From Alphaproteobacteria bacterium (lineage in GTDB: Bacteria > Pseudomonadota > Alphaproteobacteria > UBA828), in contig CBDEFM010000002.1 in assembly GCA_965237415.1 (NCBI GenBank), positions 2,240,001 to 2,304,000 of the forward strand: 64,000 nt of DNA, in the 5' to 3' direction. This document shows, in pieces, positions 3,789 through 9,531 of this stretch. Numbering within the stretch: the first letter of the stretch is position 1; each line of letters starts with the position of its first letter. The notes below the pieces were generated by a model that made no database searches, had not been told where the DNA came from, and saw nothing but the letters and a program-made list of their open reading frames with translations. The translations under genes and the position numbers were made by a program.

Positions 3789-4189
3789 CCGGCGTCAATA
3801 CTCACGGCGTGGGTTCGTCAATAGCTGGCGCCGCCGGTTGTTGACCGGGATTCGGTGAACGACGCCGCCGCGAGGATTGCCGACAGCCTCGGGACCCACA
3901 TGGACCCGCCGCCGCGCGTCCCCCGTGCCCGGGCGGCCTGACGGCGTACAGGCGCTCGACGCAGGCCCAGCCGCTGCCGGGGGAACGCATCGACCCGTCC
4001 CCCAATCTCGAGGCCGCTTCGCGCCGGGTCGAAGTCGCTTGCGTCGGCCACCCGTATCTGTTCGGTCTTGCGCCGCCGCGCGACCTTGATGATGAGACCC
4101 CCGTCGGGAAGCCACAGTCCGGTGAACGTCGCCCCGGAATCGCGCACGATGCGAAACAGCGCATCCCCGCCGCAATCGGCCGGGTCGCC

Positions 4190-4893
4190 CGTTCCACGCG
4201 CCCCTTCTCATTGCCGCGCGCGATCGCGACGGGCTGTGCCAGGAAACGGTAGTGGCCGGCGAAGTCGAGGAACTGGGGATTGAAGCGGATGGCGTCGCCG
4301 CGGCGCTCCAGCACGACGCTCTTCAGGTTGTCGTACCAGAGCTCGCGGGGCACGCCCTGCCACGCCTCGAAGGCGTCGATATGGCCACGCAGGAAGTTGC
4401 TCATCGCGGCGTTGAGGTAGAAGCGCAGGAAGATGCGTCGCGAGAAGCTCAGAACCATCACGAAGCCCATCAGCGGGCGCTCCGCGCGACCGAGCTTCAC
4501 TTTGCCGAAGTGTCCCCAATCGACCTGGGCCTGCTCGCCGGGAAGGGTCTTGAGACGCAGATAGGCCTCGGCCACAGGCTTCGGCCGCTCGGGGGCGATC
4601 ATGTTGCGGAAGTGGCTCTGGCTCCCCTGGTAGCCGCGCTCGCACGCCATCTCGTAGAGCCGGCTGGCGGTCAGCTTCGGATAGTGAGCCAGTGTCTGGC
4701 GGATGAAGGGCATGAAGGGATCGAGCTTCGAGCGCCGGTGCCGCCTCATATGCCGAGGCACCCCGTCGTCGGCCAGAACGCGGCGGACCGTGATGTGATG
4801 GACGCCGAGTTGGTTTGCGATCGTGCCGATCTTCCACTTCTCGGCGTAATGGAGGCGCAGGATCTCCGCGCGCGTCTTCTTGTCGATGGTCAT
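4190..4893 (-). pseudogene. istA: IS21-family transposase IstA, C-terminally truncated
   Basis: N-terminal [27 protein letters not shown] and EKGRVER motifs; homology stops right after RVERA and no istB follows. Confidence 0.85.
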
Positions 4894-4894
4894 C

Positions 4895-5341
4895 TCACCC
4901 TTCTCGTGCCGGATGCCGGACCGGGCGCAGGCCCGGATGGACAAACTGCGCGCAGAACCGGCCGCAGCGATGGCAGCGGAAGACCCTGGCAGGCCGCCCG
5001 TGCCCAAAGGGTTGTGTCCCGCGACGCGTCATCGGCGTCTGTGGCACAACAGGACGACGGTGCCCGCGGGTCAAAGGGTGATGCGTCACTTTCTGCGCGC
5101 AGACCTCATTCTCCGGCACCCGACGCCGGTGCCGATCGCGATAGCGCTGCTGCCGCTGCGCGTGCTTGCGACGACCCTGGAGGCTGTCCTGATAGCGCTG
5201 CCCGCAAAGACGCTGCGCCTGCCTGCGCGCCGTCTCGCGGCAGTCCGCTGAGCAGTACATGTTGCCGTGGTCGCAGCGCGGGCAGAGAACCACCTGCCGA
5301 TCGCAGTGGGCGCAGTTGAACAGGCGGCCGAAGTTCCTCAT
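4895..5341 (-). CDS. Cys-rich (Zn-ribbon-like) accessory protein found upstream of some IS21 istA genes
   Basis: CAHC...CPRC...YCSADC and CHRCGRFC motifs; abuts the istA start. Confidence 0.6.
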
Positions 5342-5686
5342 CGCGGCGGTCGATGAGAACGGGCTCGACCCCCGCCAAAACCCGCACGATACTGTGCATC
5401 TGGGCCGTGCCGAGCATGGCTCGGGGGGTGCGGCGCCGGCTCTTGCCACCAAGCAGACGTGGCCGGCGCCGCATCGTTCTCAGCGGCCCGAGTGTAGCCC
5501 TACCGATCTTGCTGTTCAGGTCCGAGGGGCTGCCGCCAGTTCGCCCGCCGCCACCGGAATCGCGACGCCTGCCCGCTGTGGATAGCCGGCTTGCCTTGCC
5601 AGACTCGAGGGAGTGGACGCCCCCTCCCGACGGCAGCGAATCGTGCCAAGGTGGTGGTGTCGAACCACCTGAGGGAGGAGGCCTCC

Positions 5687-6712
5687 ATGGATCAGGCTAG
5701 CATCATCGGGATCGATCTGGCGAAGCACAGCTTTCAGTTGCATGGTGCGCGGGCAGACGGGTCCGTTGTGTTCCGCAAGAAGCTGAGCCGGGGCAAGCTA
5801 CTCGACTTCCTCGCCTCGCAACCGCCCTGCGTGGTGGCGATGGAGGCCTGCGCGAGCGCTCACTATTGGGGTAGAGAGACCGAGATGCTCGGACACGAGG
5901 TCAAGCTAATCCCACCGATATATGTCAAGCCATTCGTCAAACGGCAGAAAAATGACGCGAGGGACGCGGAGGCGACTTGCGAGGCCGCGCAGCGCCCCAC
6001 CATGAGCTTGGTGGCCGTGAAGACGGAAGAGCAGCAGGCTCGAGGGATGCTGTTCCGCACACGCGACCTCCTGGTGCGCCAGCGCACGCAGACGATTAAC
6101 GCGCTACGGGGTCACCTGGCGGAGTTCGGCGTCATCGCTCCACAGGGGCCAGCTCATGTCAAGCGGCTGGAGGCGGCACTCATGGATCCGAGCTCGGGGC
6201 TACCGGAGCCGGTTCGCGAGCTGGGTGACCTACTGCTCGGTCAGGTCTCAGACCTCGATGCGAAGATCTACGATTTGGAGAAGGAGCTCCGCGTTTGCGC
6301 ACGCCAGGACGAAGAGGCGGCACGGCTCATGACGATCCCGGGCATCGGGCCGATCACGGCCATGGCAGTACAGGCTTTCGCCCCACCGATGGAGAGCTTC
6401 AGGCGCGGGCGCGACTTCGCCGCCTGGCTAGGCCTCGTGCCGCGACAGCATACGACTGGCGGCAAGCCAAGGCTTGGCAAGGTATCGAAGATGGGCCAGC
6501 GCGATCTCAGGCGGCTCTTGATCACGGGTGCCATGTCTGTAATCCAAGCGGCGGAGCGCCGTGGTGGCGAGACGAGGGATCCTTGGCTGGCCGAAATGCT
6601 GGCGCGCAAGCCGAAGATGCTCGTCGCGGTTGCGCTGGCCAACAAAATGGCGCGCGTCGCCTGGGCGGTGACGGCGAAGAAGGAGATCTATCGGGTTCCC
6701 GCAACCGCCTGA
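5687..6712 (+). CDS. IS110-family DEDD transposase/recombinase
   Basis: IGIDLAK, MEAC, KNDARDA, TIPGIGP and GLVP motifs; GGAGG RBS before ATG 5687. Confidence 0.95.
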   Translation: MDQASIIGIDLAKHSFQLHGARADGSVVFRKKLSRGKLLDFLASQPPCVVAMEACASAHYWGRETEMLGHEVKLIPPIYVKPFVKRQKNDARDAEATCEAAQRPTMSLVAVKTEEQQARGMLFRTRDLLVRQRTQTINALRGHLAEFGVIAPQGPAHVKRLEAALMDPSSGLPEPVRELGDLLLGQVSDLDAKIYDLEKELRVCARQDEEAARLMTIPGIGPITAMAVQAFAPPMESFRRGRDFAAWLGLVPRQHTTGGKPRLGKVSKMGQRDLRRLLITGAMSVIQAAERRGGETRDPWLAEMLARKPKMLVAVALANKMARVAWAVTAKKEIYRVPATA

Positions 6713-6969
6713 CAGGGCGGACAATCGCGGGAAGCCGTCGGGGATGTGGGCAGGTCGGAGGACAGGTAAGGAGGGCATACGGTCAATGAGACCGGATCGG
6801 GAAAACCAGCACCATCCTGAGAGCGTTCAAGCTCGCAGACTCGATTTTGGACCCGGTTCGCGTATCTCCATACGGGCCAGCGGCGATCGAAATGCCGCAT
6901 CAACAGGCCGGATAGACGACAGCACCTGACCGCATGCACCGTGCCGTTCAAAGAAAAGCTTGCATTACC
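6713..6969 (+). ncRNA. Predicted bridge/seekRNA of the IS1111 element
   Basis: 3' non-coding region contains CAGACTCGA (6836-6844), identical to the left target flank (5600-5608), and ATAGACGA (6912-6919), identical to the element right end (6980-6987); each lies next to a hairpin. Confidence 0.7.
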
Positions 6970-7461
6970 GGGGGCGTCCATAGACGAGGGCGGTCGCTGC
7001 GACAAGCCGCCTATCCACAGCTCCGACGAGGCACGCTTCCACCCGCCAAACAAGCTGCTACATCGTCACCGCACTCACGTGCTGAATGCAGCGAATAGGC
7101 GCACTTTTGGACCGTCATCGACACGCGGGACGATGGAAGAGCACCGCGATGGTCCACCGCTACGGCGAGCGGCTGCTCGCGCGGCGAAGCGGCGCGGCGC
7201 AGCTCGCGCGTCTTCAGCATCGCGCGTAGGGGCGCGGTGGCGTATCATTGGGTGTATCGCGCCGGTGCCCGTCGGCGTCGGACCGCCCTGAATTGGTGCA
7301 AGGGGCGGTTTTCCACAGAAACGTTATCGCGAGCCAAAATCGCCGTCCGGCGCAGGGAGCGTCTCCACGCACGCAGGGCGCGGATGACACGGCGCCCGTG
7401 CCTCGGCAGGATGAAACCGTCGTCGATCCAACAGGTTGAATTGCGTTTCGGAAGGACCTAG

Positions 7462-9531
7462 CCCAAGTTTAACAACCCGTTTCGAAGTCTGTTGTTTATC
7501 AATGCGTTGGGGAGCAGGAATTCCGCGTATGGCACTACATTTCGGTTGCCTGTGCCGGATTCGGGGTCAGACGATCATCTTCCTGATGCCTCCGGGAACG
7601 GGGTCTGCGCCGAGCGCCTGATAGATGGCCCGTTGTCGGAGCTCCGCGCGCGTCGGTTTGCGCACATGAAGGGTGCGGCCGTCCTTGCGCCGGAAGGTTG
7701 CCGTGACGCGCTGCTGGCCTTCGAGGATGCGTCGCAGGCTGGCCCAGCTTGCGCGCTCCCCCTGCTCGCCGAGGCGCCGGCGGATGGTCTGCACCAGCTG
7801 GTAGGCGATCACGGTGATGAACAGGTGCCCGTCGGAGCGCTTCTGGGTCTGGTGGAAGATGGGGCGCAGGCCGAGTTCGGATTTGAGCGAGCGGAACACG
7901 GCCTCCACATCTGTGAGCGCAGTATAAGTGCGCCACAACGTCTCCTCGTCCCAGTCCTCGACGTTGGTGCGCAGGCAGTAGACGCCGGGATGGGTGATCA
8001 TGGTGCCGGCGAGCGGGCGGCGTTCCCAAGTGACGGCGCGGGCCTTCTTTCCGCTGTCATCGGCGATGACATCGATGACGTAGTGCGCCCCGACACCGCG
8101 GCTCTTCTCCTTGATCCGGCCGATCCGCTGCCAGACATGGTCGAGCCGCTTGCGGGTGCGCGGGCGCTTGAGGCCGTCGTGGAGCTTGCGCAGCTCACCC
8201 TCGAAGCGCGCGGCGAAGCGCGCGGCAATGCCCTGTTCCGTCTTCGCCCGCGCCTCGGAGTAGCAGTAGAGCCGCACCTCTCCCCCGTCCGCCTCGACCA
8301 CCTTGTGCACATGGACCGTCTGGCGCGACCGGGTCTCGAGGGCAATCGCCAGGTCCGGGTCGAAGCGGCGGGCGCGTTCCCGGCTGACGACCAGATAGCG
8401 GTAGCCGTTCTCGCGCAGCCAGACGACATTGGCCTCGGTGGCGACCCCCGCATCCATCACCACCAGAGCGTCCGCCGGAGCATGCAAGGCGTCGAGCATG
8501 GGCGCCAGGGTCGTGTCTTCGTTGACCGCGCCCGCGAACACTTCGGACCGGCGCACGAAGCCCGCGCCGTCGAGCACCAGGCCCAGGGTGAGCAGCGGGC
8601 AATCGCTGCGCTTCTCCTTGGAGTGGCCGCGTTCGGCCTTGGGCTGGGCCGCCGCCTCACCCTCGAAGAAGGTGTTGGTCAGGTCGTACAGCGTGACCGT
8701 TTGGGGCAAGGCGAACAGGTCCGCCACCTGCTCGAACAGGTGGGCCTCGATCGCCGCGCGCCGCGCCAGCAGGGCATCGGAGGCCCGGTAGAGGCGCATC
8801 ATACTCATCCGCTCGAAGTCCACGCCCAGCAACTCGCCGAGGGCCGAACGCTCGCACAGCCAGCGCCAGCTGGCGCGCTCCGAGCCCGGTGCTGCCATGC
8901 GCGCGATGATGGTGGCCATGGCCAGCGCGCGTTGCGTGCCGTTGAAGCCGAGCCGCTCCAGCAGAGCCTCCAGGCCGAGCTGCTCCATGGCCCACAGCCC
9001 GACATTCTCGACGCCGACCGAGCGCGGGCGGATCAACTCCAGGGAACTCACATCCACCGTCTGCAGGTCGGGGCGCTCGACTGCGGCGGGCGGTGCGCGA
9101 TTGAGGAGTTGCGCGGCGATGCGCTGGGCATCCCGCTCCACCTCTTGCGGACAGGACAGCGGCACCAGTTCGCCCTGGCGCTCGAGCAGCTGCTGGATCC
9201 GGGCGCACAGCACGGGCCAGTGCCGTCGCTCGAGCGGGAAGTCGCTGCCGAGGTTGAGCAGGGTGTGCTGGCGGACCCTGTCTCCGCTGCGCTCGTTGCG
9301 CACGAGGCGGTACGAGTAATAGACGTCGCCGCGTTCGGTTGTGCGTATCTTGGCGTGCCGGATGAACATGGGCGGAGGATAACGGCGGGCCCGGCCTTTG
9401 ATAACCCCCTGACTCGAATATTATGTCACTACATCGCGCCCGTGAAACACGAAAACAAGCAAAATCAACGCGTTAGCGGATACCCGGCGCCCAAATACGC
9501 CAATTTCTGCCTCCCGAATGTTAAACTTGGG
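7462..9531 (-). mobile_element. IS1634-family insertion sequence
   Basis: TIRs CCCAAGTTTAACA / TGTTAAACTTGGG, flanked by CTAG on both sides (7458-7461, 9532-9535). Confidence 0.88.
7567..9369 (-). CDS. IS1634-family DDE transposase
   Basis: 600 aa with YRLV...RQHTLLNLG, LYDLTNTFFEG, GHSKEKRSD, VMDAG and VEAVFRSLKSELGLRPIFHQ. Confidence 0.92.
   Translation of the reverse strand: MFIRHAKIRTTERGDVYYSYRLVRNERSGDRVRQHTLLNLGSDFPLERRHWPVLCARIQQLLERQGELVPLSCPQEVERDAQRIAAQLLNRAPPAAVERPDLQTVDVSSLELIRPRSVGVENVGLWAMEQLGLEALLERLGFNGTQRALAMATIIARMAAPGSERASWRWLCERSALGELLGVDFERMSMMRLYRASDALLARRAAIEAHLFEQVADLFALPQTVTLYDLTNTFFEGEAAAQPKAERGHSKEKRSDCPLLTLGLVLDGAGFVRRSEVFAGAVNEDTTLAPMLDALHAPADALVVMDAGVATEANVVWLRENGYRYLVVSRERARRFDPDLAIALETRSRQTVHVHKVVEADGGEVRLYCYSEARAKTEQGIAARFAARFEGELRKLHDGLKRPRTRKRLDHVWQRIGRIKEKSRGVGAHYVIDVIADDSGKKARAVTWERRPLAGTMITHPGVYCLRTNVEDWDEETLWRTYTALTDVEAVFRSLKSELGLRPIFHQTQKRSDGHLFITVIAYQLVQTIRRRLGEQGERASWASLRRILEGQQRVTATFRRKDGRTLHVRKPTRAELRQRAIYQALGADPVPGGIRKMIV

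Follow-up and report, generated by a model that had tools for sequence, protein, structure and literature searches.

Related RNA-guided insertion sequences

IS621 and ISCro4 (Durrant et al. 2024, PMC11208160) are elements with a DEDD recombinase and a single RNA that carries both target and donor guides sharing a 2-nt core. Their RNA gene lies 5' of the recombinase gene and their donor guides occupy an internal loop; for many IS1111 bridge RNAs, the same paper places the donor guides in a multi-loop. The IS1111 group is defined, in Siddiquee et al. 2024 (PMC11187229), by the motif GL-P----S(t)G and a transposase of about 330-350 amino acids. The examples ISEc11, ISPa11, ISKpn4 and ISPst6 have a non-coding end 3' of the transposase gene (tnp), subterminal repeats and a transposase of about 340 residues. 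In PMC11187229, IS1111 seekRNAs occur as a long species of 145-170 nt and a short one of 70-100 nt and hold two short target matches, the arm complementary to the top strand being 5' of the bottom-strand arm, and the two matches overlap across the core.

IS1111-type systems are less studied than IS621. The core of IS621 is CT, while that of the family described below is YG. IS4321 and IS5075, also of the IS1111 family, reportedly are site-specific, inserting into a defined sequence that belongs to another mobile element.

The window, i.e. the whole 64,000-nucleotide stretch of alphaproteobacterial DNA that was analysed, contains at 5608-6986 what is very probably, judging from its sequence, an IS1111-group insertion sequence whose 3' non-coding end encodes on the + strand a structured guide RNA of about 150 nt (6781-6931). 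The element is an ordinary representative of an already known class, the IS1111-type RNA-guided insertion sequences. It resembles IS621 and ISCro4 in its DEDD recombinase and in having one RNA with target and donor guides around a shared 2-nt core, and differs from them in the position of the RNA gene (3' of the recombinase gene), in its long subterminal repeats and in the location of its donor guides, in a three-way junction. With the four seekRNA elements named above it shares the 3' non-coding end, the subterminal repeats, the transposase size and the GL-P----S(t)G motif, together with two short target matches in the same arm order. The RNA of 151 nt and its target arm of 66 nt, both predicted here, are close to the long and short seekRNA species. 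Unlike the matches described for the seekRNA elements, those of the window element overlap by one base, and its target, unlike theirs, lies in a hairpin loop carried by an IS21-family element. Like IS4321 and IS5075 it is site-specific in another mobile element; its site differs in being a palindrome loop about 138 bp inside the IS21-family element.

For genome biology this is an ordinary case of one insertion sequence nested in another. As a bridge/seek RNA of the IS1111 type, it is a cleanly delimited natural example with four guide segments, a core, an uninterrupted target and a covarying family of 48 members. Some 46 natural guide-target pairs on one scaffold could help define the guide length and register rules of IS1111-type systems.

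The element, its relatives and its ends

The features of the element outside the RNA gene are as follows.

5608-6986 (+): element assigned to the IS1111 group (IS110 family), 1379 bp with the right-hand CG core copy counted in
5606-5607 (+): CG core, left copy, the same dinucleotide as the left-target guide core in 48 of 48 elements
5608-5613 (+): left terminal extension AGGGAG, on the right-donor side; 5609 is G, T in relatives
5614-5624 (+): TGGACGCCCCC, left subterminal inverted repeat; its 11 bp are the exact reverse complement of 6970-6980
5687-6712 (+): transposase gene, 341 amino acids, DEDD/RuvC-like domain plus C-terminal domain (PF01548, PF02371, NF033542)
6959-6964 (+): conserved CTTGCA; C, T, G of the box invariant in alignment A1
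6970-6980 (+): right subterminal inverted repeat GGGGGCGTCCA
6985-6986 (+): CG core, right copy

The transposase matches both Pfam families of the group, PF02371 (Transposase_20, E 4.8e-23) and PF01548 (DEDD_Tnp_IS110, E 4.2e-15), and scores 320.9 bits against NCBIfam NF033542, 'IS110 family RNA-guided transposase' (cut-off 140). Its length of 341 residues falls within the IS1111 range of 330-350, and GLVPRQHTTG at residues 249-258 corresponds to the IS1111 motif GL-P----S(t)G. Among proteins of known structure, sequence comparison finds the transposases of IS621 and ISCro4 (PDB 8wt6 and 9t56) as relatives; the similarity reaches significance mostly in the C-terminal domain (E 9e-14 and 1.2e-10), and IGID, AMEA and NDARDAE are motifs that can be aligned with ISCro4. 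The full-length ORF can be aligned with its relatives over its whole extent.

Relatives were collected by a scan of genome contigs, which yielded 80 loci whose proteins are 60-84% identical; adding the window element and two diverged copies from its own genome gives 83 elements. Sixty of the 83 passed a filter asking for a repeat match of at least 10/11, a repeat spacing of 1330-1420 nt and the presence of flanks. Removal of L040, whose repeat was mispaired, left 59 elements with 48 distinct target loops. The 24 elements left out (23 by the filter, plus L040) comprise some at contig ends and some that do not have a clean repeat pair, as well as four clean but longer elements (L031, L039, L043 and L044). 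Alignment A1 covers 251 nt of the right end in 48 elements. Guide loops were located by alignment columns, as regex anchoring and exact-stem hairpin finding failed on several elements.

The boundaries are fixed by uninterrupted targets, the 20-bp loop GCCAGACTCGAGGGCGGTCG, in genomes of the same genus, and the five sites fetched all agree. Empty and filled sites differ by exactly the element in each of the five, the core, here CGAGGG, being the only sequence common to both junctions; the insertion is therefore 1379 bp long, with CGAGGG at both junctions. The same comparison indicates that insertion is specific in site and orientation and proceeds without a conventional target duplication. All kept relatives obey one junction rule, LT-YG-ATGG...GTCCANNNA-YG-RT, which in full reads left flank, YG, ATGG(R)-repeat, then at the other end repeat-NNNA, YG, right flank. 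The left and right repeats covary among relatives (e.g., GGATGCC with GGCATCC). With 11-bp repeats and 6-nt terminal extensions, the element has ends of the IS1111 kind, for which subterminal repeats of 7-17 bp (the published range) and short extensions are characteristic. The distribution of non-coding DNA, 274 nt 3' of tnp (6713-6986) versus 79 nt 5' of it (5608-5686), is also the IS1111 layout.

The predicted circle junction follows from these boundaries. By an idea taken from published work, CTTGCA at 6959-6964 is a possible -35 box of a promoter that would be completed at the circle junction. A scan of 5400-7200 for sigma-70 promoters and intrinsic terminators returned none.

To note, the right-junction dinucleotide is off by one base from the core of the guide and left junction in five of the 48 elements (L029, L049, L056, L083 and L090), reading CA or AG where CG or TG is expected. 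In L056, 10.2 copies of a 131-nt unit follow one another with 100% identity (L056:2669-4002), and the array reaches the limit of the fetched sequence. Each copy combines the right end with the donor-binding half of the RNA gene, as would result from recombination of the right end with an internal CG immediately 5' of the CCAU segment.

Structure of the predicted RNA

The predicted RNA and its segments, in 5' to 3' order, are the following.

6781-6931 (+): predicted bridge/seek RNA core, 151 nt, from the RNAalifold consensus; closed by P1
6781-6785 with 6927-6931 (+): helix P1, GGUCA with UGACC; compensatory changes at 3 of 5 pairs
6794-6859 (+): target-binding arm, made of P2 (6794-6801 with 6852-6859) and the closing helix CCAG/UUGG (6806-6809 with 6847-6850)
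6811-6818 (+): right-target guide ACCAUCCU, which complements 6987-6994 of the top strand; weak in the window copy
6821-6834 (+): hairpin GAGC-GUUCAA-GCUC between the two target guides; 3 of 4 pairs change on both sides
6837-6844 (+): left-target guide AGACU plus core CG, then A; identical to 5601-5608 on the top strand
6867-6871 (+): right-donor guide UCCAU (CCAU invariant in A1), complementary to ATGGA of the family left end
6875-6909 (+): stem-loops P4 (GGCC with GGCC) and P5 (GCGGC with GCCGC), between the donor guides
6912-6919 (+): left-donor guide AUAGA plus core CG, then A; identical to the right end at 6980-6986 plus the first left-end base

The overall fold combines a target arm, formed by P2, the closing helix and a loop that contains the central hairpin, with a three-way junction that includes P4 and P5. 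Its six helices are those of the RNAalifold consensus of the 48-element alignment, to which the evident central hairpin was added. Over the 30 pairs, 95.3% of 1435 cells are paired, versus 89.8% in shuffles, and 14 pairs (90 cells) change on both sides; these observed values were reached in none of 500 shuffles. In the controls, where partners were displaced by 1-3 columns, pairing did not exceed 48%. The changes are spread over the fold: in P2, five of the eight pairs change on both sides; the closing pair flips from C-G to G-C in eight sequences; the stem of the central hairpin reads GAGC, GGGC, GUGC or GCGC among relatives; P4 and P5 are paired in 97.9% and 98.7% of cells, respectively, and P5 has two pairs with changes on both sides. 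In A1, the window element carries no disruptive change in this scaffold.

Neither a single-sequence fold of 6713-6987, which is not unusual (z = -1.68), nor an Rfam scan of 5000-7600 singles out the RNA: at E up to 10 the scan gave no matching family and three weak, unrelated matches.

Among the 1435 cells, 115 are G.U and would become A.C mismatches if read on the opposite strand, so that the structure belongs to a + strand transcript. This bears on the idea that the guide segments work as DNA, with subterminal single-stranded DNA pairing to the target in the manner of IS200/IS605. The matches between guides, flanks and ends are indeed silent on which nucleic acid pairs. Nevertheless, the G.U pairs all lie in conserved helices and on the + strand, the protein scores as an IS110-family RNA-guided transposase, and RNAs from the non-coding end are reported as co-purifying with IS1111 and IS110 transposases and as needed for movement. 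A DNA guide is thus very improbable, and an RNA remains the reading followed here. The earlier note had described the locus as a bridge/seek RNA on the strength of one sequence; across the 48 distinct relatives, both the structure and the guides, compared with flanks and ends, covary.

Donor guides

The element's own ends are matched from the three-way junction. The earlier note had pointed to ATAGACGA at 6912-6919 as a copy of the right end following a second hairpin, and this is borne out: the segment equals 6980-6987 and comes after the GGCC and GCGGC stem-loops of 6875-6909, with a chance probability of 0.0042 for the 8-mer (here and below, chance was estimated by shuffling the non-coding end 20,000 times at the mononucleotide level). 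When the left-donor 7-mer (AUAGA+CG, 6912-6918) is compared with the right end of the same element, agreement is 7/7 in 43 of the 48 elements, 6/7 in four, and 4/7 in one that has a deletion, over 16 distinct end types.

On the other side, the base before the invariant CCAU tracks position 5 of the left end, GCCAT occurring with ATGGC (2/2) and CCCAT with ATGGG (3/3). The window copy departs from its family here. Its left end reads AGGG, against ATGG in all 47 other aligned elements and in eight of eight further relatives of the same genus (55/55). Because of this T-to-G change at left-end position 2, the right-donor guide has one mismatch, losing a pair of its invariant CCAU. The AGGG at 5608-5611 is identical to the first four bases of the right side of the target (6987-6990), and the two junctions consequently share the 6 bp CGAGGG, where the family core is 2 bp. 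It may be a point mutation or the trace of a recombination event; the sequence fits either.

Target guides

The left-target guide AGACT+CG (6837-6843) equals 5601-5607. Across the 48 elements, which hold 46 distinct targets, this guide agrees with its own left flank at a mean of 4.94 of 7 positions, versus 1.87 for the flanks of other elements; position by position, from LT-5 to LT-1, agreement is 0.73-0.96 with the own flank and about 0.27 with the others. Its core is that of the left junction in all 48, YG in the family and CG in the window element. The CG core that the earlier note thought probable is borne out, since left junction, left-target guide and donor guide all carry one and the same YG. 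The left-flank match given in that note, CAGACTCGA at 6836-6844, is confirmed as identical to 5600-5608, abutting the left end (P = 0.0016 for the 9-mer). As a guide it should be shortened: AGACT+CG stands, while C6836 belongs, by the family rule, to a conserved scaffold GC. The final A of CAGACTCGA, like that of ATAGACGA, is the first base inside the left end and hence follows the core at the circle junction; the right flank of this copy begins with that base too.

The right-target guide is a different matter. The segment ACCATCCT at 6811-6818 does match the reverse complement of 6987-6994 (AGGGCGGT) at 6/8, with the hairpin GAGC-GTTCAA-GCTC (6821-6834) lying between the two guides. The arm is the correct one, as in relatives it tracks the right flank: the mean match is 7.0/10 to the own flank versus 4.2 to others, with at least 7/10 in 36 of the 48. 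The window copy itself is weak and in an unusual register. Its 6/8 has a shuffle probability of about 0.09-0.17 and no core pairing, and unrelated pairs of guide arm and flank reach at least 6/10 in 9-10% of cases. In 29 of the 36 well-matched relatives both core bases are paired, and the usual spacer is 2 nt; the window guide abuts the hairpin spacer directly. An alternative alignment of the right guide proposed by a script (gap of 3, 6/10) was discarded because it uses conserved scaffold bases.

One position may account for part of this weakness. At 6814 the three full copies in the genome have A, while the truncated copy (G000 C2:3418278-3419092) has G, as do the covering contigs of three DNA runs from three studies (X1, X3 and X5). 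With G, the match to the right target rises to 7/8 (P about 0.02-0.04), or 8/8 with one G.U, and none of the flanks of the 47 other elements matches this guide as well. The A of the three full copies therefore looks derived.

Could the matches be chance, or leftovers of end repeats with no guiding role? Taken alone, the 6/8 right-flank match is within chance. The 9-mer (P = 0.0016) and the 8-mer (P = 0.0042) are not easily explained in this way, and across the relatives these arms keep in step with 46 different left flanks and 16 end types, which leaves this explanation with a negligible probability. The earlier note had made its reading depend on covariation of guides with flanks in homologs, and such covariation is what the 48 relatives display.

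Proposed mechanism

A guiding role for the four segments leads to the following model. The right flank would be read on its top strand by ACCAUCCU, the 5' arm of the target loop; the 3' arm, AGACU-CG, would pair with the left flank and the core on the bottom strand. The three-way junction would serve the element's own ends, UCCAU pairing with the left end on its top strand and AUAGA-CG-A with the right end and the core on the bottom strand. On the model of ISEc11 and IS621, the DEDD transposase and its RNA would then align the joined ends of the circularised element with the target CAGACT-CG-AGGGCGGT, and strands would be exchanged at the CG core. The target itself is the apical loop of a conserved palindrome located in an IS21-family element, some 138 bp from its end. 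From the described systems we infer that the RNA is made, that the transposase binds it and that the strand-exchange chemistry is of this type.

Contigs from three DNA runs and one RNA-library run contain, over 5400-7200, no joint between right and left ends and none skipping the element, although absence, starts, ends and expression levels are beyond what contigs can show. The RNA-library contigs that cover the non-coding end carry the guides of relatives (L005 and L026 types), which are other than those of the window element.

The IS21-family host and the copies in the genome

The element lies between two parts of a second mobile element.

4185-5605 (-): larger part of the IS21-family host, comprising a small Cys-rich ORF and the 5' part of istA; truncated at 4185
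6987-7124 (-): terminal 138 bp of the IS21-family host (ends ...CATCGACA), with the right half of the target palindrome; copies identical to about 7124

The genome has three identical full copies of the element and one 5'-truncated copy, all at one site of one IS21-family host element. Identity between the three full copies extends over the whole of 4185-7124 of the window, including 1421 bp plus 138 bp of host sequence, and the element thus sits inside a longer repeated unit, which NCBIfam NF033546 (205 bits, cut-off 160) assigns to the IS21 family. The window copy of the host is cut at 4185, within istA; copies 2 and 3 run 1829 bp further and are 99.9% identical to each other there. The small Cys-rich ORF, with CxxC motifs, occupies 4895-5341 (-) upstream of istA in the host and gives no Pfam or NCBIfam match. 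On the other side, the nested elements adjoin a gene for a 600-residue DDE_Tnp_1 (IS4-like) transposase, at 7567-9369 (-), making the region a cluster of insertion sequences.

The target (5565-5605 plus 6987-7020) forms the loop of a palindrome, about 138 bp inside the IS21-family end; from genome to genome (loci L107-L111) this loop is invariant and the stem covaries. The five empty sites fetched from same-genus genomes all read (G/A)CCAGACTCGAGGGCGGTCG, which is this palindrome loop with its covarying stem. Three diverged 'empty' sites in the genome itself (...CAGACTCTCGGCGGT...), which have CT in the core position, were rejected as true empty sites, being related palindromes.

Such a nested arrangement raises the question of how the copies arose. 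On one account the RNA gene is real and the copy a crippled passenger: the element would have entered the IS21-family host once, multiplied by transposition of the host, and no longer be excised or inserted. The identity over 4185-7124 with its 1421 bp and 138 bp of host, the further 1829 bp shared by copies 2 and 3, and the absence from the genome of any insert-free copy of the host's larger part, whether identical or closely similar over its length, all fit this account. So do the two changes described above, the left-end G that breaks a pair with the invariant CCAU where 55/55 relatives have T, and the A at 6814, private to the three full copies, that weakens the right-target guide. Against it, the ORF is full length and alignable end to end, and the RNA scaffold is undamaged. 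Moreover, a site-specific element would hit the same position in every host copy, and identical contexts therefore do not separate the two routes; repeated homing and hitch-hiking on the host each fit the data on the copies. We regard the passenger account as a serious possibility that falls somewhat short of an even chance. The earlier note's description of the recombinase system as intact is partly borne out: the ORF and the RNA scaffold are intact, and the left end carries a change seen in none of the 55 relatives.

Another reading, speculative and rather unlikely, makes the element a specialised RNA-guided parasite of IS21-family elements, which would home to the invariant loop of the leader hairpin and then ride on transposition of its host. 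The CGAGGG shared by the junctions may in that case record exchange or branch migration beyond the core, with target-derived conversion of the end; the 6-bp identity includes the T-to-G at left-end position 2, which copies the AGGG of the target.

The exact element was found in none of the 40 related genomes searched, where the best match has 82% identity. The same genome contains two more complete IS1111-type elements, at G000 C2:3700929-3702305 and G000 C2:3660209-3661593, which are 78% and 76% identical, and further fragments of such elements (e.g., G000 C2:1562026-1562359). These further IS1111-type elements come with guides and targets of their own, for example GTAAG-CG and TTCG.
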